IMG/VR virus record: IMGVR_UViG_3300009446_000002
Span: 1 to 56,410 of that record
Source: a virus
DNA length: 56,410 nt
Reading direction: 5' to 3' (one strand)
Part shown: in pieces, positions 39,754 to 56,410 of the stretch
Layout of the letters: the number at the start of each line of letters is the position of its first letter
How positions within the stretch are numbered: the stretch's first letter is position 1
The notes under the pieces: generated by a model
Databases searched by the model: none
What the model saw: the letters and a program-made list of their open reading frames with translations, nothing else
Told to the model about the DNA's origin: nothing
Made by a program: the position numbers and the translations under genes

Positions 39754-39765
39754 TATTTAAACTCT

Positions 39766-39969: not shown

Positions 39970-39976
39970 ATAAATT

Positions 39977-40382: not shown

Positions 40383-40582
40383 AGAACAAAAAAAAAGAAA
40401 CTATTACGCTTAAGAACGGAAGAACAGTCTACAAAGAAGACTACTTAGTAGCAAAGACGAAGGATTTACAGGACTTCGGTTATTCTTTAGAATTAAAGGA
40501 AACCAGAAAGCAATTTAGTTTATTTCAGCAAGGGAAGAAGCTTTCTATAATAGGCGAATTTATTAAGAATGACTTCGAATAA
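40379..40582 (+). CDS. Hypothetical protein (GTG start)
   Basis: GTGA overlap with the upstream stop. Confidence 0.4.
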   Translation: MKNKKKETITLKNGRTVYKEDYLVAKTKDLQDFGYSLELKETRKQFSLFQQGKKLSIIGEFIKNDFE

Positions 40583-40660
40583 GGCGCGAACAATTAAATT
40601 TTATCCTTTTTGAAATTTTAAAACCCTTATTTTGTAGAATAAAGAATAAAAATTCCACAG

Positions 40661-41230: not shown

Positions 41231-41254
41231 TTTTTTAACCTACAATATTTAAGA

Positions 41255-41791
41255 ATGAAAAAGAAATTAAGAATAAAAGAACTTCGCGTATTAACAAAAC
41301 GCGACCTACTTAAACACGCTGCAGAATTAGAAGCTATTATAGAAGAAGGAAATAGGGTCGATAGTAAGATATGTTCTATCATTATAAAAGCGCTAAGGTC
41401 TTCGCCTAAAAGTTTTAAGATTATAGAATACATAGACTTTTTAAAAACTAATTTGGTAAAGATTAGAAACGGATTAGATTATAGGATAGGAGAAGCCTAC
41501 CAAACTTTATTTGAAGAACAGCTTTCCTTAGAAATAGAAGGCGTATCTAAGTTCAAAATAGAAAACCCTATTCCTGGGGAAATAGTAGATACAGAAAAAT
41601 TAATTAGAAGAAATAATACTTTAAATGAAAGTCAGATAGTAGGAGAAGTTTCTGAACAGGAATTCAAGAACCCTACAGCACGTTCCGCAGAATACATTAA
41701 ATACGCTGGTGATATATACAGGAAAAGAAAAGATTTTAATAATAACCTATACTATCACCTTCAAATAATTAAGGAATTAAAGCTTACTTAA
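41255..41791 (+). CDS. Hypothetical protein
   Basis: 178-aa ORF. Confidence 0.55.
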   Translation: MKKKLRIKELRVLTKRDLLKHAAELEAIIEEGNRVDSKICSIIIKALRSSPKSFKIIEYIDFLKTNLVKIRNGLDYRIGEAYQTLFEEQLSLEIEGVSKFKIENPIPGEIVDTEKLIRRNNTLNESQIVGEVSEQEFKNPTARSAEYIKYAGDIYRKRKDFNNNLYYHLQIIKELKLT

Positions 41792-41809
41792 CTACTACAA
41801 AGAAGATCA

Positions 41810-42058
41810 ATGAAGTATAAACTTAAACTGCAAGGCGTAGAAGGCTTAATAGAATTTACTGCTACAAAAGAAACAAGATGTAAAGAAGCTATTCGAATCG
41901 CTATAGAATACGGAACAGCTATCGAAGGAATTTATAACGAAGACGGCTACAAGATTTATAACGGCTTAGAGATTGCGCAAATATCTTTAGTAAATGTTAT
42001 GGCTGTTATTTGCTTAGGAATTTTATTATTAACTGGTATTATATATGTTTTAAAATGA
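41810..42058 (+). CDS. Hypothetical protein with C-terminal TM helix
   Basis: C-terminus VNVMAVICLGILLLTGIIYVLK. Confidence 0.45.
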   Translation: MKYKLKLQGVEGLIEFTATKETRCKEAIRIAIEYGTAIEGIYNEDGYKIYNGLEIAQISLVNVMAVICLGILLLTGIIYVLK

Positions 42059-42657
42059 ACTTAACAAAAGAAGAATACGAAAAGCTACAGATAGAAAGAC
42101 CCGAATTACTTATAGTGCAGTATATTATAGAAAGCGGATTCGCTGGAATTCTACCAGGTTCGGGAACGATAGTCGATAGAAGAATCTACGAGGAAGCTAT
42201 AGCTATTCCCAGGTCTAAAGTTTTCGATAATCCAGAACCTATCGAATTCGATTTGAGTGACCCGACAGAAAAGCCTGTTTTCGCGAAAGAATTTAAATTA
42301 GGAATGAAAGTCGTAGACGAGCCAAAACCAGAATGTATGGAGTTTTTAATTATCGACGACCCAATTACTAAAACAATAAAAGAAGGAATAATTTTTGTCG
42401 ATCCCATCGGAGTAAGCGAAGAAGAAACTTTCGCTTCGGTATTTTCTTATGATTACGTAACAGGAATAACTAGCGTTTACTGTGAAGGCGAAGAAGAATT
42501 AGGATTTAAAGTAGAGAACAAAAACGACGCGCCGACTACTGGCGACTTCCGACCGAAGGAAGCAACTTATACAGCTTTCGGCGAACACGTTAAGACCTGG
42601 AAAATAAACCAGGAGGAATTACCGATCAAAAAAGACGACGAACCAACAGGAATGTGA
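42055..42657 (+). CDS. Hypothetical protein
   Basis: ATG 42055 (ATGA overlap) is preferred over TTG 42010. Confidence 0.55.
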   Translation: MNLTKEEYEKLQIERPELLIVQYIIESGFAGILPGSGTIVDRRIYEEAIAIPRSKVFDNPEPIEFDLSDPTEKPVFAKEFKLGMKVVDEPKPECMEFLIIDDPITKTIKEGIIFVDPIGVSEEETFASVFSYDYVTGITSVYCEGEEELGFKVENKNDAPTTGDFRPKEATYTAFGEHVKTWKINQEELPIKKDDEPTGM

Positions 42658-42668
42658 AACTTTAAACT

Positions 42669-42824
42669 ATGCCAAAGAACAGAATTAAGCCTTTCACTAT
42701 TTTAGGAGTATCTACCCAGGACTATATCGACCAAATGGAAGAAAGGAAAAAAATAAGCCTGGGACTAATTAGTAAAAAGACTAAGCGCAGGAAGAAGCAG
42801 TCTACACGAATTCCAAGAAACTAA
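42669..42824 (+). CDS. Hypothetical 51-aa basic protein
   Basis: Translated by eye: MPKNRIKPFTILGVSTQDYI...RIPRN. Confidence 0.3.
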   Translation: MPKNRIKPFTILGVSTQDYIDQMEERKKISLGLISKKTKRRKKQSTRIPRN

Positions 42825-42844
42825 AATTATGAAAATAACAATAA

Positions 42845-43696
42845 ATGCAGTTATCTTTTTTTGAGACATTACAGGACGTAAACTATTCAGATAAAAACGT
42901 AATGATAGGGTTAAGCGGCGGAATAAATTCTGCGGCTGCTTTAATCTATTTAGCCGAATTAGTAGAAGATAAGCCCAGTAATTTATTTCTTTATTATTCA
43001 CACCTGGAAGAACATTCTACAGATACTAAGAAGTTTGTTTTAGAATTGGTCGAATACGCTAAAGGAAAATTCGAAAACGTAGTCTTTGAGTATTCAGATA
43101 ATTCTATACTTACTTTCTTTGAAAATGAATTTAAGGGAATTCCGCAGCCTAAAATAACACCCTGTACACGCGTTTTAAAAATAAACTTAATGCTAGACTT
43201 TATGTCCAGGCATAAAATAGACATTGATATAGTCGGCTATGTTCGTCACGAATGGACCAGGATTAAAAGACAGATAGATAGGAAGGTAGAAAAGAAGGAA
43301 TACTTAATAAGACACCTTTCGGACGAAGACTGCTTTAGTATAGTCTTAAAATATTTCGGCTGGTTTCCAGAAATCTATTCTTTGAAATGGACAGACGATA
43401 GAATAAGAAAAGCAATAATAGAAAACGGACATTTACTTAATGAAAACCAGCGCGCTATAATTGCGGACTATAGTTCTAAGGGTTTTAACTGGCGGCGAAA
43501 TAGTTATAGAGTCTTCAAACATAACAACTGCTTACCATGCAAAAATATGCACCAATGGGAATTATTTTTAGTTAGAATCTTCTTCCCTTCTTACATGAAG
43601 AAGGCGGACGATTTAGCTACTAAATTAGGGTCCTACTGGGGAAGGTCTGTAGAAATAGTAGACGAAGATACAGACTGCGCTATCTGTTCAATTTAA
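42845..43696 (+). CDS. PP-loop ATP-pyrophosphatase superfamily protein (PAPS-reductase/DndC-like)
   Basis: VMIGLSGGINSAAAL is an SGGxxS PP-loop. C-terminal Cys pairs NNCLPCKN and DCAICS. Confidence 0.55.
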   Translation: MQLSFFETLQDVNYSDKNVMIGLSGGINSAAALIYLAELVEDKPSNLFLYYSHLEEHSTDTKKFVLELVEYAKGKFENVVFEYSDNSILTFFENEFKGIPQPKITPCTRVLKINLMLDFMSRHKIDIDIVGYVRHEWTRIKRQIDRKVEKKEYLIRHLSDEDCFSIVLKYFGWFPEIYSLKWTDDRIRKAIIENGHLLNENQRAIIADYSSKGFNWRRNSYRVFKHNNCLPCKNMHQWELFLVRIFFPSYMKKADDLATKLGSYWGRSVEIVDEDTDCAICSI

Positions 43697-43747
43697 AACA
43701 TCTAAAGGGACATAATTAGATGAAAATAGCTTCCGAAAAATTCCCTA

Positions 43748-43755
43748 TATCTTTG
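43748..43755 (+). promoter_or_regulatory. -7 promoter box TATCTTTG preceded by ATTCCCTATA
   Basis: Exact TAnnTTTG. ATTCCCTATA (43740-43749) is identical to 3014-3023. Confidence 0.35.
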
Positions 43756-43769
43756 GTAAAAGTTTAGTT

Positions 43770-43973
43770 ATGAAAATCACCAGACACAGGGACCAGCAAA
43801 AGAACAAAAGCGAAGAAAACTTAAACCATATCTTAAGCACATTCTGCGAAGAACTTCGAACACACGTAAAGCAATTCGAAGACGAATACGCAGTAAACCA
43901 GACGCTTAAGGAATGCCACTTCGATAAGGAAATAAGGATAAATTTAAAGGTAGGCGTAAGTATTATAAAATAA
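43770..43973 (+). CDS. Hypothetical protein
   Basis: 67-aa ORF. Confidence 0.4.
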   Translation: MKITRHRDQQKNKSEENLNHILSTFCEELRTHVKQFEDEYAVNQTLKECHFDKEIRINLKVGVSIIK

Positions 43974-43989
43974 ATAAATATATTTGCAT

Positions 43990-44063
43990 TGCGCATTGGA
44001 GCAGTTTGGTAGCTCGCGAGGGTCATATCCTTGAGGTCACAAGTTCGAATCTTGTATGCGCTA
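43990..44063 (+). tRNA. tRNA with anticodon CAT (Met, or Ile if lysidine-modified)
   Basis: Cloverleaf folded by hand. Acceptor stem 6 bp plus a T:T at 1:72. D-stem GAGC/GCTC with A14 and GG. Anticodon stem CGAGG/CCTTG, loop GTCATAT. T-stem ACAAG/CTTGT, loop TTCGAAT. No encoded CCA. Confidence 0.8.
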
Positions 44064-44080
44064 CAAAAAACACCTTAGAA

Positions 44081-44114
44081 AAAGCCCTGTTCCATTAAGT
44101 TAGAACGGGGCTTT
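44081..44114 (+). terminator. Hairpin after the tRNA (weak T-tract)
   Basis: 12-bp stem AAAGCCCTGTTC with GAACGGGGCTTT. Confidence 0.4.
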
Positions 44115-44156
44115 GTAGTATGAATAAGACGAAAATAACAGAAGAATAAAAATGCT

Positions 44157-44164
44157 TATATTTG
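44157..44164 (+). promoter_or_regulatory. -7 promoter box TATATTTG with no ORF downstream
   Basis: Exact TAnnTTTG. The next start codon of a real gene is 186 nt away. Confidence 0.3.
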
Positions 44165-44256
44165 GTTTACATATTTCCAGAAAGGATTTTTTCTAATCAA
44201 AAAAGCTATTATTATGAAATAATTAATAAATAAGAAGCAACTGTTAACACCAACTA

Positions 44257-44294
44257 AGCCCAGGAAAATAACGCTATAACGTTATTCCTGGGCT
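44257..44294 (+). terminator. Long hairpin (15 bp with a 2-nt bulge)
   Basis: AGCCCAGGAAAATAACG pairs with CGTTATTCCTGGGCT, followed by TT. Confidence 0.45.
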
Positions 44295-44336
44295 TTCCAT
44301 TATATTAAAACGGTGCGTAATATTTCTTTTTTGCTA

Positions 44337-44344
44337 TATCTTTG
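44337..44344 (+). promoter_or_regulatory. -7 promoter box TATCTTTG, 6 nt before ATG 44350 (tail-module promoter candidate)
   Basis: Exact TAnnTTTG. CTATATCTTTG is shared with 43745-43755. Confidence 0.4.
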
Positions 44345-44349
44345 TCACT

Positions 44350-47300
44350 ATGACGGAAAAGATTAGTTTAATAATCAATATAGAAGGCTCCGAAGATTCT
44401 ATTCGGGACGTAGCAAGATTAGAAGACGCGCTTTCTGGTATAGGTCAACAAATGAAAGACCTTAAAAAAGATTCTACTGGTACTTCTACCAGCTTATCCG
44501 ATGTAAAAAAAGAACTTTTAAGCCTTAAGAATTCTGGGAAGGAAACTTCCGACGAATACAAAGAACTTTCTGCACAGTCTAAAACCCTTACTGATCGACT
44601 GGAAGGAAATAAGAAAGCTGTGGAAGATTTAAAAGTAAGCCAGCGACTTCTTCGGGAAGAAAAGAAGGAAGTAAACAAAGAACTAAATAAGTCTATTAGG
44701 GACTACCAGAAATTCGGCGATTCAATTCCAGACGATTCTATCGAAGGATTAGCCAGGGCTTATTCCGATATGAGAAAAGAACTACGCCTGGTCCCTAAGC
44801 AAATTAGAGACTTAGCAGACCAGTTCGGGAAGAATGAAGTAGCGCTAAAAAGATTAGACCCAGAATTAGAAAGCGCAGTTCGTTCTTATAATGAATTACA
44901 GAAGAAAGCAAAAGATACGAAACAGGAAGTTTTAGACTTCGACCAGGGAATAAACGATTTTACTTCTAATATAGGAAATTACGCTTCCGCTTTAGACGGC
45001 TTAAACCTGGGCGGAATACTCGGAAAGATTGGCCAGGGTGCTTTAGGCTTTGCTTCTGGCGGCGTAGGCGGCGGACTTGGCGCGCTGGGTCTTCCTTCTG
45101 TTTCAGAACTTAAGGGAATAGCTGGGGTTTTAGGTCCTGCAGGAATTGTCGGAACTGCGATAGCTGCTACAGCTTTAGCTTCGGCGAATTATGCGATAGA
45201 CGTTACCAGGGAATATGAACAGCTTTTCGCGACGGTCGGAGCTATTACAGGATTAGTAGGCGAAGACTTGCAGAACGTAACTGCACGAACGAAAACACTT
45301 TCAGAAGTATTTGGACAGGAATTCGACAGAAGCTTAGAAATAGTAAACGCCACGCAGAAAGGATTCGGCGAAGATTTTAATACTACGATCGACGAAATAA
45401 CAGAAGGGCTTATTTCTTTGGGCGACTCTGAATTAGCCAGGGATAACTTCTTAGATTCCCTAAGGGAATATCCGAAGCTAATAGCTGACGCTGGTTTTTC
45501 ATTAAGAGAATTTATACAGCTTAACGTAATAGCTGCACAGGAAGGAACCTATTCGGATAAGGTAGTAGATTCTGTTAAGGAAGCAAACCTTTCACTTAAG
45601 GAACTTACGAAGACACAGTTCGACGCTTTGGAATCTACTTTAGGAAACGACTTCGCTGCAGATATAGAAAAGAGAATAAGAGAAGGAACGACTTCTTCGA
45701 AAGACGCTATTTTAGAAATAGGCGAAGCATTAGAAGAAGGCGGCGCAGACCTGCAGGACTACGCTATAATTTCAGCAGATGTTTTTAAAGGTGCAGGCGA
45801 AGATTCTGGTGGGTTTAAAGAAGTATATGAAATCGTAAAAGAATCTATAGTAGCGGCAAATGAAGAAATAGGCGAAAGTCAAAACGCCTACGAAAGAAGA
45901 CTTCGAACAAGCATAGAGGCGACCCAGGACTTAAACGAAGAACAGACCCTTTTAGCTTCACAACTTGCAGGACTTGGAACTTCATTTGATTCTATAGGAA
46001 CTAAGGCGAAAGCTTTCGGAACTTCATTACTTAACGACGTTCTTCTTAATTTTAGAGCGCTTAAAAAAGAGTTCGAAGACGGAAACGGATTAGAAGGCGT
46101 AGGAAATTTCTTAGCAAATAGTTTCGAATTAATTATACCCGACAGCGTAGAAGAATATTTCGGATTCGCAGAAGAAGGCGCAGGCGGAAGGAAAGCTGGA
46201 AGGGAAACACTAGCTGAAATTATTGCAGCCGACGCGGAAGCCCTGCAGGAAGTTAACGAAGGAATAGCAAAAGACAACGAAGCCAGAAGTAAGGCGGAAG
46301 AATTAGAAATAGAAAGGAAAAGGAAACAGGCTGCAGCTACCAGGGCGCTTAATAAATCCATAAGGGAAGAAGCACAAAGTAACGCAGCGGAAATTAAGAA
46401 GTCGGAAGCAGAAAAAAGGAAAGTAGAAAAGGACGCTGCAGCAGCAGAAAAGAAATTCGAGCAGGACAAAGAAAAGGCTGCAGCAAATATTTCTAAATTA
46501 GAAAATGAAATAGGCGACGGACAGGCGAAGCTTTTAGAAAAGAATCTTACGGACCTGGAAGAATACGAAAGACAAAAAGCGGCTTTAGTCGGCGATTCAG
46601 AAACAGAAATAGGAAAACTGTTAGGAGACGAAACACAGATAGCGCAGCAGACAGAACTTATAAAGCAGGCTTTAGACATACAGATCGCAGAACTAAAAAA
46701 GAAAAGAGAAGAAGCTTTAGATTCTGCAGCAGATAATACATTCCAGGAAGCGGAAGCTGCACTTAATAACGATCGGACTGCAGAAGAATTCGGCGCAATA
46801 ACAGATTTTAATAATGAGATAGGAACGGACGCTACAAACGCCGAAAGGATTACTGCAGAAAAAGAACTGTACGACGAACTTATAAGAATAGAGCAGGAAT
46901 ATTTAGAAAGGCGCGAACAACTAATAGAAAACGACCCTTCGTTAACGGACGAAGAAAGAATAGCTAAGCTTAAAGAGATAGCAGAAAGGGAACAGCAGAT
47001 CAACGAAGAAAAGAACCAAGTTTTAATAGACCAGGAAGAAAAGGCTGCTGCGGAACGTGCGCAGATTCAAGAAAGAAGCGCTGCAATTTTAGGAAGCGCT
47101 ATCGAAGGAATAGGAAGCGCTATAGGTTCTTTTATTGGTGACCAGGAAAAGGACGTAAAAGAATTTTACAAAGGTCTTATTAACGTAGCTATTCAAGCGT
47201 TAGAGCAGTTTCTTATAGCTTCTATTACAGCGCAGTCTTTAGCGCAGCCCGATTCCGTTGCTACATTTGGGGCAACTGCGGCGCCAAGAATTGCACTTCT

Positions 47301-47982
47301 TACAGGATTAGTAAAAGCTGCTTTCGGAATAGTTCGCGGCGCTATTGCACAATTCGAAGAAGGCGGAAACACAGACCCGAACAACTTAACACAGGCTAAA
47401 GACGCCTTCGGCTTAATGTGGCATATGAACAACGGCGGAAGAATTTCTTTTCCTGCAAAGTCTGGCGGACTTATACAGGGACCAGACCACAGTAACGGCG
47501 GCGTAAAGTTTAGAGTAAAAAAAGGCGGAAGAAGTTTTATAGGTGAAGCGCGCGGTAATGAGTTAATAATGAATGAAAGACAGCAGTCGGCTTTAGAAAG
47601 TATAGCTGGTAAAGATATTTACAAACGAATAGGAATTCCAGGGGCTTCTTCTGTGTCTCAAAATTTAGCTAACTATTACGGCGGAAGGTCTTCTGGAAGG
47701 TCTTCTGGGAATTACTTTCAATATGAAGCAGGCGGCTTTATTCCGCAGGTAGCTTCTGCAGCAGATTTTAGTTCTGCAATGCGCGGAAATATGAACTTAA
47801 GAATAAGCGAAGAAGATTCTGTTCGTAATGCCGAAATAATAGCGGAAGCTGTAGGGCAAAAACAAACAGAAGTTTTACAGCAAACGCGCGACGAAATGGT
47901 AGAACAGTTTACTACTGCTTTAGATTCAGTAAATAGATTACGCGAAAGAGAATCCGCAGCAAAGTCTTCCGCCGAAATATGA
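44350..47982 (+). CDS. Tail tape measure protein
   Basis: 1210 aa. Long coiled coils plus Gly-rich hydrophobic segments (GGVGGGLGALGLPS...). Followed by large tail genes. Confidence 0.8.
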   Translation: MTEKISLIINIEGSEDSIRDVARLEDALSGIGQQMKDLKKDSTGTSTSLSDVKKELLSLKNSGKETSDEYKELSAQSKTLTDRLEGNKKAVEDLKVSQRLLREEKKEVNKELNKSIRDYQKFGDSIPDDSIEGLARAYSDMRKELRLVPKQIRDLADQFGKNEVALKRLDPELESAVRSYNELQKKAKDTKQEVLDFDQGINDFTSNIGNYASALDGLNLGGILGKIGQGALGFASGGVGGGLGALGLPSVSELKGIAGVLGPAGIVGTAIAATALASANYAIDVTREYEQLFATVGAITGLVGEDLQNVTARTKTLSEVFGQEFDRSLEIVNATQKGFGEDFNTTIDEITEGLISLGDSELARDNFLDSLREYPKLIADAGFSLREFIQLNVIAAQEGTYSDKVVDSVKEANLSLKELTKTQFDALESTLGNDFAADIEKRIREGTTSSKDAILEIGEALEEGGADLQDYAIISADVFKGAGEDSGGFKEVYEIVKESIVAANEEIGESQNAYERRLRTSIEATQDLNEEQTLLASQLAGLGTSFDSIGTKAKAFGTSLLNDVLLNFRALKKEFEDGNGLEGVGNFLANSFELIIPDSVEEYFGFAEEGAGGRKAGRETLAEIIAADAEALQEVNEGIAKDNEARSKAEELEIERKRKQAAATRALNKSIREEAQSNAAEIKKSEAEKRKVEKDAAAAEKKFEQDKEKAAANISKLENEIGDGQAKLLEKNLTDLEEYERQKAALVGDSETEIGKLLGDETQIAQQTELIKQALDIQIAELKKKREEALDSAADNTFQEAEAALNNDRTAEEFGAITDFNNEIGTDATNAERITAEKELYDELIRIEQEYLERREQLIENDPSLTDEERIAKLKEIAEREQQINEEKNQVLIDQEEKAAAERAQIQERSAAILGSAIEGIGSAIGSFIGDQEKDVKEFYKGLINVAIQALEQFLIASITAQSLAQPDSVATFGATAAPRIALLTGLVKAAFGIVRGAIAQFEEGGNTDPNNLTQAKDAFGLMWHMNNGGRISFPAKSGGLIQGPDHSNGGVKFRVKKGGRSFIGEARGNELIMNERQQSALESIAGKDIYKRIGIPGASSVSQNLANYYGGRSSGRSSGNYFQYEAGGFIPQVASAADFSSAMRGNMNLRISEEDSVRNAEIIAEAVGQKQTEVLQQTRDEMVEQFTTALDSVNRLRERESAAKSSAEI

Positions 47983-48128
47983 AGAAATTAATACACAGGC
48001 TGGACTACTACTATGTAGAAGACTACGATATAGTAGTTTTTTACTTAGGTAAAAAATTATTCTTAACGATAGGTCGATCCAAGTTCGAAGAATACGAAAA
48101 GAAATATAGACTAAAATTTAATTCTTAA
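47979..48128 (+). CDS. Hypothetical 49-aa protein
   Basis: ATGA overlap with the tape-measure stop. Translated by eye. Confidence 0.3.
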   Translation: MKKLIHRLDYYYVEDYDIVVFYLGKKLFLTIGRSKFEEYEKKYRLKFNS

Positions 48129-48131
48129 AAT

Positions 48132-49283
48132 ATGGCTGTTATAATTGTACAGAATCCTACAAACACAGGCGGCGGCGGCGGCGGTCTTATTCCTGTAACT
48201 AATTGTATAAAATGGCTTATACAAATGACAGGCGTAGAGACAGAAACAGAATGTAAAACTTTAAAATACCAACTGTGCGACGATCAAGGGAACGAAATAT
48301 CTTCTGTGCAAACTATACAGCCGCCAGAAGGCGTATTTTTTCCGCTATCTTTTGAAAAAGATATTAAGTCTTACTTTGAAGTTAAGCCGCCGCTAGGAAA
48401 TGGAACAAACCCTTTGCCCTTCGAAAATAAAGTAAGCGTATTACTGAAATACTGGGAAGTAACAACTACTAAAACGCTGCCCTGCACATCTACGGAAGGC
48501 GCACAAATGACGGACGGGAATTACGATGTAATTAACGCTGGTGATAATTGGTTCTGTAGGTTTAACGAAAACAGACCTTTAAACATTAAGCCCGAACTTA
48601 TGGAAGTATGTAGAGATACGAAAGACTGGCTTTACTTCTGCAAGGGCGGAACGGTCGGCGCTGTTCTATATGATTCTAAAGGTCAAACAGTCGGCGACTT
48701 TGGACCGTTAACAGTATCGGACGACAATTACGTCGGCGTAGGTCCTGGGAATATTTACCCAGACGGCGTTCCTGCTCATATAGAATGTATAGAGGTTTAC
48801 GGACCAGGTATAAATTATAAGTACGTTTTTTGTTGCTGTAAAGATTCTCATATAGATATTCACTTCCAGTCTATATTAGGCGGCTTTTCTACTATGTCTT
48901 TCAATGAAACGGAATCTATAACGCTTACTACTTCACAAAGCGAAGTCTGCAGGAATTCTTCTTTCTGCAGGAAGGGCTTATCTATTTGGACAGAAGATTC
49001 TGGTTTTAGAATTTCAGAAAAAACTATTTTCAAAAAGTACAGTTTAAAAAAGACAATAGAGGCGCCCGACAGCTTAAGACAGCAGGCTTTTTTCCAGGAC
49101 TTTTTTACTTCCTGCGTTTACTACATAACGGTAAACGATAATAAGACAGAAGTAAGTTCTATCCGTATTCCTTTTATTTTGGACCCTGGGACTTTTAAAA
49201 TAATGGATAAGAAAGGCTGCTTCGAATTGAATGTTACAGGCTACATTCCTATTCCTACAAATAAGCCTTCTTCTGGATTCTAA
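48132..49283 (+). CDS. Tail/baseplate protein (distal-tail-protein position)
   Basis: 383-aa ORF directly after the tape measure gene. Positional only. Confidence 0.5.
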   Translation: MAVIIVQNPTNTGGGGGGLIPVTNCIKWLIQMTGVETETECKTLKYQLCDDQGNEISSVQTIQPPEGVFFPLSFEKDIKSYFEVKPPLGNGTNPLPFENKVSVLLKYWEVTTTKTLPCTSTEGAQMTDGNYDVINAGDNWFCRFNENRPLNIKPELMEVCRDTKDWLYFCKGGTVGAVLYDSKGQTVGDFGPLTVSDDNYVGVGPGNIYPDGVPAHIECIEVYGPGINYKYVFCCCKDSHIDIHFQSILGGFSTMSFNETESITLTTSQSEVCRNSSFCRKGLSIWTEDSGFRISEKTIFKKYSLKKTIEAPDSLRQQAFFQDFFTSCVYYITVNDNKTEVSSIRIPFILDPGTFKIMDKKGCFELNVTGYIPIPTNKPSSGF

Positions 49284-49294
49284 AAATAAAATAA

Positions 49295-52200
49295 ATGTCT
49301 ACCTGCGCTTCGATAACAATTCTTAAACAGTTTTCATTTATACCGAATCATTTAACCGATTCGAGCGGCTTTGTAAATTTAGATTTACCAGCTAAATTTT
49401 CATTCCAGGAAAACAAAGTCTTAGGAGAATTAAATGACTTAGGAAAACTTACATTTAATTACATTACTGGAATACAAATAGAGAACAGCGAAAAGAATAA
49501 GATTTTAGCGCGAAACATATTACACCCGAATAACGAATTTCGATGCGAACCTTTAGCTGCTTTAATTTCTTCTGGTTGTGCTACGAATACAGATAACGAA
49601 ATATTATTTAAAAAATATTCTAACGATAGAATAGAAGTAGACGTAGTTACGAAGGTTAACGACTGGGCAAAAAAACTGGCGCTATGTAGTCTTTCGGAAT
49701 TATACAAAGACGAAGAATTTGTTTTTACCTGCGACAATGTTTTAGCTAATATTCAAAGTCAAAACACCTACCAAGTCGGAAACCCAGGATTTACTTTTCC
49801 AGAAGCTTTCTATGGTAATTCGCATTCTTCCCAGGGCTTAGGTTATGACATTACACAAACAGACGGAACAGAAGAAGGCTGCGGAACTTCCGACGGTTCT
49901 ATAGAGTTTTCGCAGAATCCTATTACTTACAATTCGAAGAACGTCTGCAAAGCATTAACACAGCAGCGCCCCTGGTTATTTGCAGCAAATGTTTTCGAAC
50001 GCGCTTTCTGCAAAGTCGGAAAGCCTTTTAGTTCGCCTTTATTAGAAAGCGAATTTGGTAGCCGAATAATGACTTTAAATCTAAATAAGGAATACGGAAC
50101 AGGCGACGAAAAATATTTACTAAATATGGCTGCAGAACATAATACTTCTGTAGGCCCTACTACTGTTCTATGGAATGAAAAGAACGGACTGGCAGGCTGT
50201 CACTATTTACCGAATACTATCTTAGATAACGGCGGCGGATTTAACGGAAGAAATTACTGCGGCGTAGGAACCGTAAAAGTAAAAGGAAGTTTTAAATTTA
50301 GATTCGACGACGATCGCGAAAATAATAGTTTTGTTCATGTTACATTTATAAAGAGAACAAAGGGCGGCGGCGGAACTACAGGCTCAATTTATAAACAGGT
50401 TCTTATAAATGAATGGAAGAAAGACCAGGAATTCTGTATAGAGATAGACGAAGAAATTTCTATTTCAGAAAAGCAGGAACTTTGTTTGCACTATTGGCGG
50501 TCTAATTCAGATATAGAAATATTTCAGCTACAGGGTTCTTCTTTACAAATAGAAGGCTGTAGGAAACTTTGGGAAGACGGCGACGTAGTAAAAATGTCGG
50601 ACCTTATTTCTTCCGAAGTAACTGCTTTAGATTACGTTAAGGGAATAACCGAAGCTTTAAATTTAAAATGGTTCGAAGACCCGAAGACCTGCAAAATAAT
50701 TGCCTTGCAGCCTTACGAGATCACAAAGTTAGACGAAACAGTCCCAGGCTTCTTCGACGAATTAGAACTTATAGATTGGACAGAAAAAGCAAACGAAAAA
50801 AATATTTGCGTAACTGCACCAGAAATTAATTCGCCGCGTTATTGTTTACTGAAATATAAAGAAGCTACAGATTTATTTTTAAAAGATAACGAAAACTTCC
50901 CTGTAGATTTATGGAGCCGAACAATAGACCTGGGCGAAAAGTTTACTTCCGACGAAACTAAGGAAAGGGAAAACCCTTTATTCGAACCCGTAATAAATGA
51001 AACTGGCGGCGGTCTTAATTCTATGCTTCTACAAAGTAAAGACGGCGAAGACTCCTGGTGCTTAGGTAATAAGATCGCTTTTTCTTACGGTCTTCGCGAC
51101 AGCTTCCACGTAGATACTTCCGCATTCACTACAGGCGACCCGAACTTCCCTTTCGGCGACTCCTGGGAAAAGACTTCTTTCCTTAATTGTAAACACGAAG
51201 AACAGACTACGACCTTAATAGCTGGTCAATATATACCAGGCTATCTTAGTCCAGAAGGCGGCGGAACTACTTCGGAAATTCTGCAGGGTGCAGAAATAGA
51301 CTGCAATGGAATTCTAACTTATGAAATTAACGCACACGGAAATCCTCCGAACATACAGACTGCTTACCATTTATTTTGGGCGCGTTACCTTCTGGAAAGT
51401 CTGCTGCAGATTCCTTTAGAATACATAGTTCCTTTAAGCTGCAAAGAATACGGCGAAATAAATTTCCGAAATAGGTACTTAGTTACAGTAGAAGGAAAGG
51501 CTGTCTTCGCAAGGCTTACGCGCGTCTTTGATTTTCAAGCCTGCAGGAATATTCCGACTCCTGTAGAATTTATCGCTATGAAGCCCTTAGTAGAACTTTG
51601 TGGAATAATTACACCAGACGGCGGAAGCGATAACAACGAACCTATCTGCTTAAACTTTCCTTCTTTCGATTGTCAAAAGATCGGAGAAAACTGGTTCGTA
51701 AGTATAGGCGGAAGTATGGAAGCGAATATAGATTCTGTTTTATGGGAATGTAGGACGCCAGGCGGAACCTGGGAAACTTTAGGCGAAACAGGTTCTTCTA
51801 TTATGATTACGCCTGCAGACTTTGGAAGCGAACCCTGCAAAGAAGTAAAGGCTACAGTTTCTTTTCTTCCTGTAAATGGCGTAGAATGTTTACCTATTAC
51901 GCTTCCGAATAAAAAGCTTTTAAACTGCGTAGAAGTTATTCCAGTTTTAGACTGCGTAGTAACTACGCAAGGGACTCAAATCTGCGCTTCTGCCGTAGTC
52001 GATGCACAGGGCGAAGCTTATACTGCTAACCTATATGTAGATTTAAACGACGGAAACGGAAACCAGCCTTATAATGAATCTACTTTAATCTGCGGACTTA
52101 CTGCAGCGCCTACCTTCGGCGGAACGGTAGACTTTACAGAAGATAATTGCGACCCTGTAGACCTTATAGAATTGACCTGCGAAATTCCAGACTTAGTATG

Positions 52201-52516
52201 TCCAGTAGGTCCGCTTACTGCGCACTTTATATGCGACGGCGACTGCTGGACTGCAGAACGCGGCGAATACCAGGGAACAGATATAAACTTCTTAGGCTAC
52301 CAGGTAATAGATAGATTCTTATTCCGATGCTGGGACGACGAAGCGAACGATTGGGGCGAATGGTGTTTCTATAAAGAAAAAGTTTGCTGCAATAAAGTCG
52401 AATTTATGCGAACAGTAGAATTCTGCGACGCCGACTGCCCTAAGATGAAAAGCGAAATTTACACCTGCGATAAAAACAATGTAGACCCAGGACAAAACAC
52501 AGTAATAGTATTATGA
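49295..52516 (+). CDS. Large tail/baseplate protein (Tal position), C-terminal third Cys-rich
   Basis: 1073-aa ORF. Positional assignment. No signal peptide. Confidence 0.55.
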   Translation: MSTCASITILKQFSFIPNHLTDSSGFVNLDLPAKFSFQENKVLGELNDLGKLTFNYITGIQIENSEKNKILARNILHPNNEFRCEPLAALISSGCATNTDNEILFKKYSNDRIEVDVVTKVNDWAKKLALCSLSELYKDEEFVFTCDNVLANIQSQNTYQVGNPGFTFPEAFYGNSHSSQGLGYDITQTDGTEEGCGTSDGSIEFSQNPITYNSKNVCKALTQQRPWLFAANVFERAFCKVGKPFSSPLLESEFGSRIMTLNLNKEYGTGDEKYLLNMAAEHNTSVGPTTVLWNEKNGLAGCHYLPNTILDNGGGFNGRNYCGVGTVKVKGSFKFRFDDDRENNSFVHVTFIKRTKGGGGTTGSIYKQVLINEWKKDQEFCIEIDEEISISEKQELCLHYWRSNSDIEIFQLQGSSLQIEGCRKLWEDGDVVKMSDLISSEVTALDYVKGITEALNLKWFEDPKTCKIIALQPYEITKLDETVPGFFDELELIDWTEKANEKNICVTAPEINSPRYCLLKYKEATDLFLKDNENFPVDLWSRTIDLGEKFTSDETKERENPLFEPVINETGGGLNSMLLQSKDGEDSWCLGNKIAFSYGLRDSFHVDTSAFTTGDPNFPFGDSWEKTSFLNCKHEEQTTTLIAGQYIPGYLSPEGGGTTSEILQGAEIDCNGILTYEINAHGNPPNIQTAYHLFWARYLLESLLQIPLEYIVPLSCKEYGEINFRNRYLVTVEGKAVFARLTRVFDFQACRNIPTPVEFIAMKPLVELCGIITPDGGSDNNEPICLNFPSFDCQKIGENWFVSIGGSMEANIDSVLWECRTPGGTWETLGETGSSIMITPADFGSEPCKEVKATVSFLPVNGVECLPITLPNKKLLNCVEVIPVLDCVVTTQGTQICASAVVDAQGEAYTANLYVDLNDGNGNQPYNESTLICGLTAAPTFGGTVDFTEDNCDPVDLIELTCEIPDLVCPVGPLTAHFICDGDCWTAERGEYQGTDINFLGYQVIDRFLFRCWDDEANDWGEWCFYKEKVCCNKVEFMRTVEFCDADCPKMKSEIYTCDKNNVDPGQNTVIVL

Positions 52517-55500
52517 TGAAAAAAATATTTATTCTTATTCTGCTTTTTATGCTAGTCGTGCAGACTTGCTTTTCGCAGATAGACCCTTCTAATATTTGCT
52601 TATTTGACATTATAGAAGGAAATCCGTCTACAGGCGGAACGATCGAAATTACAGACGACCCTACAGGAACGCTTAATACTACTTACGACTGGGACGAATC
52701 CTGCGTAGACCTTTCTTCTTTAGAATGCGAAGTAGTTACTTTTACTTACTGTGTAGAAGGCGACTGCCCAGAACCCGAATTCGTAAACTGTGACGAAATA
52801 TGTACAGAACATGAAATAATAAAAGGCTTTACAGAATTAGACTGCGACTGGACACAAAGGCAGGACCCTGTAGCTGGTTCCGGTCCCTGGGACGTTTTTA
52901 CGCCAGGCTGTAGCGCGACAATTTGCAGCGACGGCGTTAACGACTTCTGGTTCCGACTTATTCCGAACGGAATTACTTCGGACGACGACTGCGAACTTAC
53001 AGGACCTTACGGAACTATAGACTTAAGTTTAAACGGTGCAGGAATTATGTTTAATGTAGATCAGACGCATTCTGGAACTTATACCTGGATTTGCTTCGAA
53101 GGTGACGAACTGTGCGAACAGTCTGGCGAATTCATTTTAGAAATAGAACCCTGCGACGATTGTAGCTTAATGTGCGGAAGTCCGATCGTAGAAAACAATA
53201 TTTGCGAATCTACGGACTTAGGAATAATTTCTTTTTGTATTACTGGCGGAATAGCGCCTTATTCCTGGACTACGGTAGACGGAACTATTACTTCTTCTAA
53301 TTTTTGTGAAGAACTTTTCGTAGATGCAAGCAGCGGAACTTATTTTGTAACTGTAACGGATGCGAACGACTGCGAAGTAATTTGCGAAGCAGAAATAATT
53401 TCAGAAGATAACGAAGACTTCCTTTGCGAAGTAGAAACAGAACCAGACAACTGCGCACAGTCCACAGGCGAGGCTACTGCAAACCAGACAGGCGGAACAG
53501 CGCCCTTTAGTTATCAATGGGATAACGGCGGAACTACTGAAACGATAACAGGACTTTCCGAAGGAGTTTACTGTGTAACTATTGTAGATAATTTTGGCTG
53601 TGAAGTTTCCTGCTGCGAATCCGTAATAAATGTAGAAAGTAATTTAATTTGTGATATTACAGAAACGAACGAAAGCTGCGCAGGAAACGACGGAACGCTT
53701 TCTGTAAATACTTTAAACGGTCCTGCACCGTTTTTATATAATTGGAGCAATGGACAAAATACAAACCCTATAAGCGGATTAACTGCAGGAATTTATTCTT
53801 TAACAGTTACAGACGCAGACGGCTGTTCTGCTGTTTGTGAAGGCGAAGTAGTTTACGAATGCGTTTGCGATTTAGAAATTATTTCTTTATTTCCAGAAGA
53901 CTTCTGCCCAGGTGAAGAAGGAAGCATACAGGTATTTTATTCTGGCGGAACAGCACCTTATTCTATTATTTGGTCTAATGGAGAAACTACGAACCCTATT
54001 ACTGTAAATACTGCAGGAAGTTATTCGGTAACGGTTACAGATACAAACGACTGCGAATCTATAGGCGTAGGAAATGTAAACGAATATCCTGCGCCGACTT
54101 GTTCGGTAGTAACAACGGAAACAGAATGTACTTCGCCGACAGGGACAGTAGAAGTAAATGTAGTCGGCGGAACGCCTTCTTATTCTTATTTGTGGTCGGA
54201 CGGTTCTACTTCTTCTTCTGTTACTGGACTGTCTGCAGGAATCTATTCGGTAACTGTTACAGATTCGAACGGATGCGTTACAGAATGCGAAGGCGAAGTA
54301 GAGGAATTCGAAGCGAATGATGGAAACTGTAGAACACGAATCCAGGGCGGACAATGGGAAAATACGTGCTTTATAAATTTCTGCCCTAACGATGGGCTTA
54401 TAACTTTCTTAGATGTGCAGCCAGGCGGTAATACAAATAACTGCTTTATAGTTTCGCCTTCTACAATTACTTATAATGCGAACAATGGAATAAACGGTCT
54501 TTTTGTAATAGACGATTCTATAGAAGAAGAAGGCGCCTGGGTATCAACGTGCGAAGATTCGAACGGATGCACATATAATATAACTTTCTTTTTAACAGAA
54601 GACTGCCCCTGTAATTTAGTTCCTGTTTGTTCTGCAGAAGATGAAACCTGCACAGATTACGACGACGGAATAATAGAAGTAACACCTACAGGCGCTAATT
54701 ACGTCTGGTCGGACGGACAAACAACGAATCCAGCTATAGGATTAGAACCAGGAACTTATTTTGTAACGGTAACAGATTCGAATGGATGTTCTGGAACCTG
54801 CGAAGGAGAAGTAGAAGAAGCGACTTTAGGCGGAATAGTTCTTAACGGCGACTGTTCGTCTTTAACTTGGTTCTGGTCGCCCTATCCTGGCGGTTCTGGT
54901 GCTTACTTTACTCAATGGTTTTTAGACGGCGTTTTTATTTCGAACGGCGATCCTATAACGCCGATAGGAACAGGAACTTACACAGCGATAGTTTCTTATT
55001 CTGGAACTGGTAATAATTGCGACTATACAGGACCAGGACTTTTCTTAGATTGTACTGCAGGCTGCACAGACCCAGTAGTAAGTATTTCGGGCGGATGCAC
55101 GATATTAACTTCTTCTATTTCGGGCGCCTGCCCTTCGCCTACTTATCAATGGTTTCTAAATGGTGCTGCAATTTCGGGCGCGACTTCTTCGACATATAGT
55201 CCGCCGCCTAATATTTCGGGCTTTATTAATTTACAGGTTCTTTGTTCGAATGGATGCGACGACACGTCTAACAGTATTTCTTTAAACTGCGGCTGCACAG
55301 ACCCAGTAGTAAGTATTTCGGGCGGATGCACGATGTTAACTTCTTCTATTTCGGGCGCCTGCCCTGGTGCTTCTTATCAATGGTTCTTAAATGGTTCTGC
55401 TGTTTCTGGTGCAACTTCTTCGACCTGGACACCACCTGCAGGAACTTCTGGAAATGTTCTTTTAGATGTAAATTGTAGTAACGGCTGCGGCGATTCTTCA

Positions 55501-56410
55501 AACGGAATTTCGCTTAACTGCGGCTGTACGGACCCAGTAGTAAATATTTCTGGTTCCTGTGCTTCTGGACTGTCTTCTTCTATTTCTGGTTCCTGTCCGT
55601 CGCCTTCTTATAATTGGATTTTTAACGGGAACACTATTTCGACTTCTTCTTCTGTTACTTCTTCTATAGTGCAGGCGAACGGAAACGGAACCTATTTACT
55701 TTTAGTAACTTGTTCTAATGGCTGCGGCGACAATTCGTCTATATTTATTTCAGACTGTGTAGACCCATGCGAAAGCTGTTCTATAACTGTTTCTACAAAT
55801 AGCTGCGAATTAATTTACTCAATAGTAGGCGCAGGATGCGCAGGGCGTCCCTGGCAAATACAATTCCAGGACGGCTGTTCTGGTTCTTTTGCGACAGTAT
55901 CTACAGGAAACGGAACAGGAAACGGAAGCTACACAATAGACGAAGACGGATGCTACAGAATTTTTATGCCTGCTTCTGGAAACTGCCCTGCAGAATTTTC
56001 GAACATAGCTTCTTTTTCTGGCTGTGAAGTTTCCTGCGACTGCGACGTAGTTTTGATCGACGACGGCGACTGCACACTAAGCGCAATAGTTTCGGGTTCG
56101 GCTTCTGACTGTGCAAACTACGATTTAATAATAGTTAAATTTAATTCTTCTGGCTGCAGCGGTTCTACCTGTACATTAGAATTCTTTCCAGGAGCAGCAC
56201 CAGGAACATATTTTGCAAATGATATAGAAAAGAATGCCTGTTCTTCTTATGATAACGACACAGGCTACAGGGCGACTTTGATCGGAAACAACGGCTGCAG
56301 CACAAACCAGGGAAACTGTATAAATTTAACTGGCTGCGAATGCGATATAAGCTTAAGCGTTTCTGTTTCGAATTGCGTAGCTACTGCTACACCTATAGGC
56401 GGTATAGGAC
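52513..56410 (+). CDS. 5' part of the 1447-aa exported, Cys-rich SprB-repeat protein (tail-fibre position); continues at 1..569
   Basis: ATG 52513 has an ATGA overlap with the upstream stop. I translated the whole stretch and found no stop to the window end. Signal peptide MMKKIFILILLFMLVVQTCFS|Q. At least six SprB-type units between about 53200 and 54820. Confidence 0.8.
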   Translation, partial: MMKKIFILILLFMLVVQTCFSQIDPSNICLFDIIEGNPSTGGTIEITDDPTGTLNTTYDWDESCVDLSSLECEVVTFTYCVEGDCPEPEFVNCDEICTEHEIIKGFTELDCDWTQRQDPVAGSGPWDVFTPGCSATICSDGVNDFWFRLIPNGITSDDDCELTGPYGTIDLSLNGAGIMFNVDQTHSGTYTWICFEGDELCEQSGEFILEIEPCDDCSLMCGSPIVENNICESTDLGIISFCITGGIAPYSWTTVDGTITSSNFCEELFVDASSGTYFVTVTDANDCEVICEAEIISEDNEDFLCEVETEPDNCAQSTGEATANQTGGTAPFSYQWDNGGTTETITGLSEGVYCVTIVDNFGCEVSCCESVINVESNLICDITETNESCAGNDGTLSVNTLNGPAPFLYNWSNGQNTNPISGLTAGIYSLTVTDADGCSAVCEGEVVYECVCDLEIISLFPEDFCPGEEGSIQVFYSGGTAPYSIIWSNGETTNPITVNTAGSYSVTVTDTNDCESIGVGNVNEYPAPTCSVVTTETECTSPTGTVEVNVVGGTPSYSYLWSDGSTSSSVTGLSAGIYSVTVTDSNGCVTECEGEVEEFEANDGNCRTRIQGGQWENTCFINFCPNDGLITFLDVQPGGNTNNCFIVSPSTITYNANNGINGLFVIDDSIEEEGAWVSTCEDSNGCTYNITFFLTEDCPCNLVPVCSAEDETCTDYDDGIIEVTPTGANYVWSDGQTTNPAIGLEPGTYFVTVTDSNGCSGTCEGEVEEATLGGIVLNGDCSSLTWFWSPYPGGSGAYFTQWFLDGVFISNGDPITPIGTGTYTAIVSYSGTGNNCDYTGPGLFLDCTAGCTDPVVSISGGCTILTSSISGACPSPTYQWFLNGAAISGATSSTYSPPPNISGFINLQVLCSNGCDDTSNSISLNCGCTDPVVSISGGCTMLTSSISGACPGASYQWFLNGSAVSGATSSTWTPPAGTSGNVLLDVNCSNGCGDSSNGISLNCGCTDPVVNISGSCASGLSSSISGSCPSPSYNWIFNGNTISTSSSVTSSIVQANGNGTYLLLVTCSNGCGDNSSIFISDCVDPCESCSITVSTNSCELIYSIVGAGCAGRPWQIQFQDGCSGSFATVSTGNGTGNGSYTIDEDGCYRIFMPASGNCPAEFSNIASFSGCEVSCDCDVVLIDDGDCTLSAIVSGSASDCANYDLIIVKFNSSGCSGSTCTLEFFPGAAPGTYFANDIEKNACSSYDNDTGYRATLIGNNGCSTNQGNCINLTGCECDISLSVSVSNCVATATPIGGIG
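55060..55752 (+). repeat. Three tandem 231-bp (77-aa) coding repeats inside the SprB-repeat gene
   Basis: Units start at 55060, 55291 and 55522 (GGCTG(C/T)AC(A/G)GACCCAGTAGTAA...). The first 76 nt of units 1 and 2 differ at one position. Confidence 0.85.
56288..56410. repeat. Terminal overlap, copy 2 (identical to 1..123)
   Basis: Exact identity read directly. Confidence 0.95.

Follow-up and report, generated by a model that had tools for sequence, protein, structure and literature searches.

Is the largest protein of a phage, encoded in the place of a tail fibre, built from the repeats of bacterial SprB-type adhesins and starting with a predicted signal peptide, a part of the virion or a product exported from the infected cell? 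This question is raised by a 1447-aa open reading frame (ORF) in the IMG/VR virus record IMGVR_UViG_3300009446_000002, which was analysed over its whole length of 56,410 nt (hereafter, the window, to which all positions refer unless another contig is named). The window belongs to a tailed phage, with genes for a head maturation protease (3034..4422, E = 2e-45), a large terminase (23567..25024, E = 2e-60) and a tape measure protein (TMP, 44350..47982), and its host is probably a member of the Bacteroidota. In these bacteria, SprB-type adhesins drive gliding and prey capture, and they have been linked to phage susceptibility. The evidence presented below leans to export. We favour, with about even confidence, the reading that the 1447-aa protein is an adhesin exported by Sec, stapled by disulfides and co-expressed with the tail genes, which would stay in the periplasm until lysis, and not a conventional fibre.

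An intact gene across the junction of the genome

The first 123 nt of the window are identical to its last 123 nt (56288-56410), so that the record can be rotated as a genome of 56,287 bp. The first-pass annotation of the window had traced a frame from an ATG at 52513 through this overlap to a TAA at 567-569, and all of its figures agreed with our recomputation: frame 1 is open from 52513 to the end of the window and, once the 123-nt duplicate is removed, continues in phase to the TAA, giving a gene of 4344 nt and a product of 1447 aa. This is the largest ORF of the phage, followed by that of the TMP (1210 aa). As had also been annotated, its ATG (52513-52515) overlaps the TGA (52514-52516) of a 1073-aa ORF (49295..52516) in an ATGA arrangement. 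The gene thus occupies two parts of the window:

52513..56410, + strand: 5′ part of the 1447-aa ORF (aa 1-1299), which continues at window position 124, since 56288-56410 duplicates 1-123
1..569, + strand: 3′ part of the 1447-aa ORF, coding up to 566 and with the TAA at 567-569; 1-123 is the copy of 56288-56410

The full 4344-nt gene is internal to two independent contigs, ENA ERZ27241781 k141_409223 (megahit, 44.4 kb) and JGI 3300027623 Ga0209828_1001754 (19 kb), and the rotated window showed no mismatches to them over 24.3 kb and 18.6 kb, respectively. Since the gene is whole and identical inside both contigs, the junction does not hide a stop or a frameshift, the defect that the first-pass annotation had named as a way for the ORF to prove false, and the ORF is not an assembly artefact.

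An array of cysteine-rich, immunoglobulin-like domains

The 1447-aa protein matched the Pfam SprB family (PF13573) with 97.9 bits (gathering score, 28) over six stretches, and the same family appears in the precomputed Pfam annotation of an identical protein (P0001). By motif, self-comparison and alignment we delimited seven SprB-type units of ca. 75 aa each (aa 225-299, 301-375, 376-450, 452-526, 526-600, 697-771 and 1273-1347), which follow the pattern C…GG..PY.Y.W…G.Y.VTVTD.NGC and, when aligned, agree throughout in their G, Y, T, D and C columns. The profile match therefore bears out the SprB-type repeats proposed in the first-pass annotation; their number and nucleotide ranges also stand, although the units are longer than the ~65 aa estimated there. 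Along the gene, the protein is organized as follows (CTD, C-terminal domain; Ig, immunoglobulin; T9SS, type IX secretion system):

52513..52575, + strand: predicted Sec/signal peptidase I (SPI) signal peptide, aa 1-21 (MMKKIFILILLFMLVVQTCFS); from the Bacteroidota Q-rule, its cleavage is expected before Q22
52576..52836, + strand: mature N-terminal region, acidic and Cys-rich, aa 22-108, containing an EGNPSTGG motif
52837..53205, + strand: lineage-specific N-domain, aa 109-231, 39 % identical to two to three copies in the ortholog P0123 and found nowhere else
53185..54312, + strand: SprB-type repeats 1-5, aa 225-600, with a period of ca. 75 aa
54313..54600, + strand: non-repeat insert of 96 aa, aa 601-696, delimited by self-comparison
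54601..54825, + strand: SprB-type repeat 6, aa 697-771, from motif and alignment
54826..55812, + strand: second, 77-aa Ig-like repeat in ca. 3.5 copies that are 50-80 % identical, aa 772-1100; Pfam BiPBP_C with 44.5 bits, PKD-like
55813..56328, + strand: diverged beta repeats rich in Cys, aa 1101-1272, for which no homologs were detected
42..266, + strand: SprB-type repeat 7, aa 1273-1347, whose first 82 nt also stand at 56329-56410
267..566, + strand: C-terminal Cys-rich beta domain of ca. 100 aa, aa 1348-1447, similar to the internal repeats and distinct from a T9SS CTD

The EGNPSTGG motif of the mature N-terminal region is also present in the repeat units of a cellular adhesin (P0124), and the 77-aa repeat is visible in the DNA as a 231-nt tandem repeat (55054-55550). 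A word-indexed homolog search with aa 1085-1275 (55765-56337) gave no match and missed even the protein's own entry, P0001; negatives of this search on segments rich in Cys, Ser and Gly need caution, and this one is weak.

With 103 Cys (7.1 %; 102 in the mature chain), the protein is as cysteine-rich as first described. This content is about three times the median of its cellular homologs (2.5 %) and higher than that of all 119 top cellular matches. The protein is also acidic (12.5 % D+E) and poor in K+R (1.0 %, ca. 15 residues), the mature chain having its first Lys at ca. aa 104; we considered this paucity as a special trait and discarded it, because it is typical of SprB-repeat proteins (median 1.6 %). 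As a separate observation, the mature protein contains a single Bacteroidota O-glycosylation sequon, D-[ST]-[AILMTV], compared with 7.3 ± 2.6 in shuffled sequences, which may mean that the sequon is depleted, or may simply follow from the repeat consensus.

The seven repeats were combined in a profile, which was compared with structures in the PDB. It matched GhpA of Aureispira (9flp, nine stretches, E = 4.7e-8), virion proteins of phages in their Ig-like domains (neck whiskers gp24, 9occ, E = 1.4e-6; decoration proteins, 5lxk and 8zvi, E of ~1e-5; Hoc, 3shs, E = 0.07) and PKD domains of collagenases. These matches indicate that the SprB-type repeat is an Ig/PKD-like bead. Searches of PHROGs identified the Hoc-like head decoration family phrog_2973 (E = 4.9e-25) together with families annotated as 'major tail protein' and 'tail protein', and no tail-fibre family. 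Single-sequence AlphaFold2 models were of low confidence (pLDDT of 36.8 for aa 22-235 and of 36.2 for aa 1260-1447) and hint at an all-beta content, including the last ~100 aa.

These results bear on the main rival explanation, namely that the protein belongs to the virion in the conventional way, as a string of Ig-like beads that serves as tail fibre, side fibre or decoration and is assembled in the cytoplasm on the tail tip; its hydrophobic N-terminus would then not serve for export but might be buried in the baseplate, masked by a chaperone or bypassed. We regard this as possible but rather unlikely. The homology to solved whisker and decoration domains and to Hoc-like PHROGs argues for it at the level of domains only, whereas a match to a tail-fibre family of PHROGs, which would have been in its favour, is absent.

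A predicted signal peptide for Sec export

The N-terminus of the protein, MMKKIFILILLFMLVVQTCFS followed by QIDPS, displays a basic n-region, a hydrophobic core of 12 residues, Cys at position -3, Ser at -1 and Gln at +1, and was judged to be a signal peptide by inspection and with a hydrophobicity heuristic. According to the Q-rule described for Bacteroidetes, cleavage by SPI exposes a Gln that is later cyclised to pyroglutamate (PMC5837995, PMC10653852). By inspection, the sequence around the predicted site (QTCFS/QIDPS, with the slash marking the cleavage) fits this pattern, as does that of the ortholog P0123 (SLTG/QTLVP), and a small-x-small ending before Q was found in 49 of the 87 cellular SprB-repeat homologs that have a hydrophobic N-terminus. 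Together with its conservation in P0123, these features uphold the prediction of a cleavable Sec signal peptide before Q that had been made in the first-pass annotation.

Two other interpretations of this N-terminus were rejected. The protein does not qualify as a lipoprotein, because VQTC lacks a small residue at -1 and the signal peptide of the ortholog is Cys-free. Likewise, there is no internal start that would bypass the signal peptide, since the next Met lies within the h-region and the following one at ca. aa 179. The absence of such a start weighs against a virion component assembled in the cytoplasm, as does the signal peptide, which is of canonical form, is kept in a distant ortholog and would send the chain to Sec. 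Additionally, the mature N-terminus resembles the repeat units of adhesins and not a known fibre anchor.

A distant ortholog in a syntenic tail module

A search with the full protein retrieved 6030 matches, the top ones all being cellular SprB-repeat proteins of Bacteroidota with 25-36 % identity. When aa 1-235 were run with HMMER against 1.84e9 cluster representatives, a single true ortholog was identified, P0123 (1378 aa, E = 2e-25), with a Q-rule signal peptide (MNKIKSTIVLFLIASLSLTG, followed by Q), SprB repeats, 6.5 % Cys and no CTD-like end. P0123 contains two to three copies of the N-domain with 39 % identity to that of the 1447-aa protein, and the identity overall is ca. 30-39 %; the N-terminal part is better conserved than the C-terminal part, and there is no specific conservation of the C-terminus. 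The 11.9-kb contig that encodes P0123, L084, comes from a distant phage and is syntenic with the tail module of the window. The genes of the window are listed below in their local order, each with its counterpart in L084:

44350..47982, + strand: TMP, 1210 aa, identified with PHROGs, which starts the tail-tip gene string; in L084, a TMP-like C-terminus, by position
48132..49283, + strand: 383-aa tail-tip candidate in the Dit position; in L084, 379 aa (23 % identity, E = 4e-10)
49295..52516, + strand: 1073-aa tail-tip candidate in the Tal/hub position, an ORFan whose stop overlaps the start of the 1447-aa ORF; in L084, 704 aa, aligned to aa ~25-594 (N-terminal ~570 aa; 22 % identity, E = 1e-16)
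52513..569 across the junction, + strand: 1447-aa ORF; in L084, P0123 (E = 2e-25)
603..1004, + strand: 133-aa ORF with a Q-rule signal peptide; in L084, 113 aa (9375-9716 of that contig; 24 % identity, E = 1e-5), also directly downstream of the ortholog and without a signal peptide, for which there is no room
1006..1410, + strand: 134-aa ORF with a hydrophobic N-terminal segment and then a basic stretch; in L084, 148 aa, kept beside the large gene (34 % identity, E = 9e-13)

The comparison indicates that four features are kept across a deep split: signal peptide, N-domain, SprB array and location in the tail module. Cytoplasmic assembly is hard to reconcile with a signal peptide that is kept over a divergence down to ca. 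30 % identity, and we thus consider it likely, from the predicted signal, that the protein uses Sec export of some kind.

No close relative of the protein was found in IMG/VR, and nothing was retrieved from metagenome, genome and viral contigs with alignments built for the N-domain and the Dit-like ORF. The lineage is known from metagenomes alone, through this phage and one 12-kb relative, with no cultured host.

The ortholog also bears on the origin of the gene. As the close relatives of the repeats are all cellular proteins of Bacteroidota, the ORF could be a decaying or non-functional fragment of a host adhesin gene acquired by the phage. This is barely credible, however, for an ORF of 4344 nt that is intact and identical in three assemblies, that retains a recent in-frame duplication of 231 nt and whose GC content is similar to that of the other, neighbouring structural genes (0.42-0.435), and even less so when an ortholog with the same architecture is present in a distant syntenic phage.

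The C-terminus lacks a recognisable T9SS sorting domain

Each complete cellular homolog that we inspected combined a signal peptide with a type A CTD (CTD-A), a type B CTD (CTD-B) or an OmpA end. That these homologs are exported proteins counts in favour of export. Searches of Pfam and NCBIfam identified no CTD-B (PF13585/TIGR04131) in the 1447-aa protein, while CTD-A (PF18962/TIGR04183, Por_Secre_tail) gave 27.7 bits with the Pfam model and 34 bits with the TIGRFAM model, in internal positions 525-589 only and with no stretch passing alone. We also built hidden Markov models (HMMs) of both types from the C-termini of the cellular matches. At the C-terminus of the protein (…RLYDCNGNTVSTSICLPTSNC) the CTD-A HMM scored at most 2.3 bits, compared with 29-90 bits in six held-out controls, and the CTD-B HMM scored -3 bits, compared with 97-120 bits in five held-out controls. 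The remark in the first-pass annotation that no T9SS CTD was obvious is thus verified by family searches and by our own HMMs with positive controls. Family searches of the neighbouring genes did not reveal a recognisable PorP/SprF-like partner either. Since it lacks the CTD domains, the chromosomal location, the size of ~6500 aa and the sprF/PorP partner for which it was examined, the protein is a SprB-repeat protein but it is neither an ortholog of SprB nor a canonical T9SS cargo.

A further possibility is that the protein ends on the surface of the infected cell, crossing the inner membrane by Sec and then the outer membrane by T9SS through a non-canonical C-terminal signal, where it would mimic or mask SprB-type adhesins and cause superinfection exclusion or altered gliding or adhesion. 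There are precedents for parts of this route: ChiA of Flavobacterium johnsoniae is secreted by T9SS with a CTD that fits neither type A nor type B, and phages do carry complete SprB-repeat cargo (LR756502 and the IMG/VR loci L013, L051, L068, L083 and L035; see below). The last ~100 aa of the 1447-aa protein are also predicted as all-beta, albeit with low confidence. Against this, its C-terminus stays at or below 2.3 bits (CTD-A) and at -3 bits (CTD-B), where the controls reach 29-120 bits, the Por_Secre_tail signal is internal and does not pass in any single stretch, the ortholog shows no specific conservation of the C-terminus and a PorP/SprF-like partner is not recognisable nearby. Display through T9SS therefore appears improbable to us.

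Location in the tail module and cysteine content of the phage proteins

As the first-pass annotation had pointed out, the 1447-aa ORF stands in the position of a tail fibre, directly following the TMP gene and two tail-tip candidates. The 383- and 1073-aa ORFs are candidates for Dit and Tal by position only, with no match in family, PDB or phage-database searches; the 1073-aa ORF had no match in INPHARED or IMG/VR and retrieved only itself among 5.8e9 proteins. The gene order, with the ATGA overlap and its synteny in L084, favours a virion component, and so does the better conservation of the N-terminal than of the C-terminal part with respect to the ortholog, as it occurs in fibres. However, the variable, Cys-rich C-terminal ~480 aa of the 1073-aa ORF could, judging from its sequence, be the actual receptor-binding part, in which case the 1447-aa ORF is not needed as a receptor-binding protein.

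Cysteine is not restricted to proteins with a predicted signal. The signal-less structural candidates of the phage (4428..5693, 8246..8872, 48132..49283 and 49295..52516) contain 3.3-6.2 % Cys, with 3.3 % in the major capsid protein and 3.9 and 4.0 % in the two tail-tip ORFs, compared with 0-1.5 % in replication and packaging proteins and 0 % in the TMP. The structural candidates of L084 are likewise Cys-rich (4.2 and 3.7 %). This pattern suggests a disulfide-stabilised virion in this phage lineage. We accordingly rejected the richness in Cys of the 1447-aa protein as a proof of its export; being common to signal-less structural candidates, it fits a virion component as well.

The overall organization of the genome is peculiar in some respects. 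The large terminase gene (23567..25024) is ca. 20 kb from the protease/capsid block (3034..8253), which is an unusual order, and the TMP and tail-tip genes (44350..52516) precede the head genes once the junction is crossed, with all genes on one strand. A single tRNA-Met gene (CAT, 43990..44064) is situated just upstream of the TMP gene. Scans for sigma-70 and Bacteroidota-type promoters gave matches at chance level only.

Other predicted exported proteins of the phage

The 1447-aa protein is not the only one in this genome with a predicted signal. Signal- or transmembrane-like N-termini were found in nine of the 53 plus-strand ORFs of at least 100 aa, compared with 2.6 % of 386 ORFs from IMG/VR loci. 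Q-rule signal peptides are present in the ORFs at 603..1004, 11617..13800, 13797..14822 and 15841..18396, and also in a 123-aa ORF (34688..35059) that falls just below the hydropathy threshold and is not counted among the nine. The ORF at 14827..15825 (332 aa) starts with a lipoprotein signal (LLIG/C) and contains a zincin-like HEAAIH motif; it belongs to no Pfam, PHROG or NCBIfam family and is a candidate for an exported metalloprotease. Together with the three ORFs around it, it makes up an uninterrupted block (11617-18396) of four ORFs with no family matches and, in general, searches of PADLOC, NCBIfam, Pfam and PHROGs returned nothing for most of the signal-bearing ORFs or for the conserved neighbours of the 1447-aa ORF.

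An exception is a signal-bearing ORF of 319 aa (25065..26024), with weak matches to MauG/di-haem cytochrome c peroxidases (TIGR03791, E = 1.1e-6), one CxxCH motif (CESCH, aa 228) and one CESSCH, which may be a periplasmic haem enzyme carried by the phage. Haem proteins of the c type require export. As this MauG-like ORF must then be exported, it argues that the predicted signals are functional in this phage. The 1447-aa ORF and seven others (603..1004, 11617..13800, 13797..14822, 14827..15825, 15841..18396, 25065..26024 and 34688..35059) make up ca. one fifth of the coding capacity. The conservation of the signal peptide of the 1447-aa protein at ca. 30 % identity and the occurrence of at least eight other signal-bearing ORFs, including that of a c-type haem protein, are the reasons why the evidence leans to export and not to a function in the virion. 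Both had been offered in the first-pass annotation, as a receptor-binding protein made of host-adhesin modules or as an exported decoy or surface-remodelling factor.

SprB arrays in other viruses

Among 50,697 records of INPHARED, only one matched the SprB array, that of the 642-kb phage LR756502; its 1670-aa ORF (LR756502.1, locus L085, 5742-10754) has a signal peptide and a CTD-B with 89.8 bits. In IMG/VR, the motif Y[ST]VTVTDxNGC was found in 81 loci, against an estimated chance expectation of ~0.03. Most of these contain signal-less arrays whose first residues already belong to a repeat and whose genes overlap the end of the preceding ORF, of 670-1000 aa; they are of 550-1100 aa, belong to several families and include L018 (2825-5278), L055 (7388-9952), L009 (2565-4688), L004 (6707-9175) and ca. 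50 other loci. One of the signal-less loci had a weak match to a 'virion structural protein' PHROG, and these arrays are probably virion proteins of unrelated phages. Conversely, a signal peptide was accompanied by a CTD-B (71-77 bits) in L013, L051, L068 and L083, and by a CTD-A (46 bits) in L035. The ORF of L051 (IMGVR_UViG_3300045009_000409, 2377-4836) lies directly after the genes for tail sheath (E = 2.9e-72) and tube.

The 81 viral SprB loci contain no homolog of any other protein of the window; unrelated phages have thus recruited SprB arrays repeatedly. The sequences thus point to two patterns in viruses, signal-less arrays that are probably virion proteins and arrays with a signal peptide and a CTD that would be displayed on the cell surface. 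The 1447-aa protein and P0123 represent a third pattern, with a signal peptide, no CTD and a tail-tip locus.

The first pattern can be read in two ways. Signal-less arrays that overlap the end of a 900-1000-aa ORF in unrelated viral contigs (L018, L055 and L009), one such locus having the weak structural match, support that the 1447-aa protein is also a virion component. On the other hand, since the structural-looking viral ORFs with SprB repeats have no signal peptide, the signal peptide is not a neutral passenger of the repeat module.

Proposed route and fate of the 1447-aa protein

In the reading that we favour, the gene would be transcribed with the late tail-tip genes and probably coupled to them in translation, as suggested by its position and the ATGA overlap. 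The 21-residue signal peptide would direct the chain to Sec and SPI would cut before Gln22, generating a pyroglutamate, as predicted from the sequence features, the ortholog and the Q-rule. In the oxidising periplasm the 102 Cys could form disulfides and, by analogy with GhpA, hold ca. 15-17 beta domains of the Ig-like/PKD-like type stapled together as a rigid, acidic rod. Since a lipobox and a recognisable T9SS sorting domain are absent, the default fate of the protein would be to remain periplasmic until lysis, when it would be released with the progeny as a free multivalent adhesin. We speculate that it might bind glycans or proteins of the host envelope or of the environment, and so mask receptors on debris or neighbour cells, or hold the progeny on particles. 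The conserved neighbours, the 133/113-aa and the 134/148-aa ORFs, probably act with it.

Several observations weigh against this proposal. The signal peptide was called by inspection and a heuristic, and its cleavage is a prediction. The slot after the TMP and two tail-tip candidates, entered through a 4-nt overlap, is the usual place of a fibre or receptor-binding protein. The repeat profile matches Ig-like domains solved in virions (9occ, 5lxk and 8zvi), with Hoc-like and tail families in PHROGs, and the Cys content does not discriminate, because the signal-less virion candidates are Cys-rich too. The small ORF downstream has a homolog in L084 that lacks a signal peptide. Finally, we know of no obvious precedent for a purely periplasmic adhesin of 150 kDa.

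Export and a role in the virion might also be combined, if the protein were exported and folded oxidatively in the periplasm and then, after lysis, docked on tails or capsids or bound again to cell surfaces, like PblA and PblB of phage SM1. The 102 Cys would favour an oxidising compartment, by analogy with GhpA (10.1101/2024.01.29.577165). This route would also reconcile the conserved signal peptide with the position in the tail module and the coupling. However, the addition of a fibre after lysis is not known to us from any tailed phage, and the Pbl proteins of SM1 are not known to carry a signal peptide; we consider this two-step route highly improbable.

A broader scheme can be drawn from these elements, which we put forward as unlikely as a whole. 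It would consist of a SprB-type adhesin from the tail module that passes through Sec and acquires ca. 50 disulfides in the periplasm; it would then either join virions or coat debris and neighbour cells after lysis, or reach the cell surface through an unrecognised T9SS signal, as part of an exported programme that takes up ca. one fifth of the genome.

Implications

Our literature searches brought up neither a tail fibre with a signal peptide nor a phage-encoded T9SS cargo, nor a giant protein of the SprB type that carries a signal and is encoded in a tail module. Phage particles with Ig-like arrays and phage proteins with Q-rule signal peptides were known separately; the gene described here combines both, and adds the tail-tip location and the absence of a sorting domain. 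If the protein is indeed exported, the composition of the virion could not be read reliably from position in the tail module alone in phages of Bacteroidota, and such phages would devote much to the remodelling or exploitation of the host envelope. Its use after lysis, or an unrecognised T9SS signal, would amount to a new way for a phage to deploy modules of host adhesins. The lineage is rare, with two contigs, and the choice between export and a virion function is a sharp question that is accessible to experiment.

Comparison with known systems

The 1447-aa protein shares with SprB of F. johnsoniae and other cellular SprB-repeat adhesins the SprB/Ig-like repeat of ~75 aa, the low K/R content, the acidic character and, as predicted from its sequence, the N-terminal Sec signal peptide. 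It differs from them in being encoded by a phage, within a tail module, in being four to five times shorter and in its about threefold content of Cys. SprB itself is a chromosomally encoded protein of ~6500 aa with an adjacent sprF/PorP-like partner, whereas the window encodes 1447 aa in a phage genome and no such partner. The lineage-specific N-domain and the C-terminal repeats have no homologs in cells, and the CTD-A, CTD-B or OmpA end of the cellular homologs inspected is missing. In one cellular protein, the SprB-like grappling-hook protein GhpA of Aureispira, the solved structure shows each Ig-like domain joined to the next by disulfides, which make the stem stiffer (10.1101/2024.01.29.577165).

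Among virion proteins, T4 Hoc, the decoration proteins of the T5 pb10 type and neck whiskers resemble the 1447-aa protein in presenting an Ig-like/PKD-like array encoded in the structural region of a phage. They are not known to have a signal peptide and are assembled in the cytoplasm. They also contain one to four Ig domains and are not Cys-rich, in contrast to the ca. 15 domains and the high Cys content found here.

Signal-bearing proteins encoded in the tail or receptor-binding protein region and acting on the host envelope have counterparts in T5 Llp, next to pb5, and in Cor of phages like T1 and phi80, and the tail-like proteins PblA and PblB of SM1, with no known signal peptide, become adhesins of the bacterial surface after lysis. 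Llp and Cor are small lipoproteins, whereas the protein described here is a repeat array of 150 kDa. Searches of PADLOC and PHROGs showed no similarity of the latter to Llp, Cor or PblA/PblB.

Phages of Porphyromonas gingivalis encode proteins with predicted SPI cleavage that exposes an N-terminal Gln (Matrishin et al., 2023, PMC10367356), and the authors proposed that these phages use host secretion and possibly modify the host envelope (PMC10367356). Those phages are temperate and the proteins have no assigned function; SprB repeats, a giant size or a tail-tip location were not described there (PMC10367356).

Finally, the phage-borne T9SS cargo (LR756502, L013, L051, L068, L083 and L035) is likewise encoded by phages, with a signal peptide and SprB repeats and, in L051, beside tail genes. 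It shares no other genes with the window and, unlike the 1447-aa protein, it ends in a canonical CTD-B or CTD-A, with 46-90 bits.

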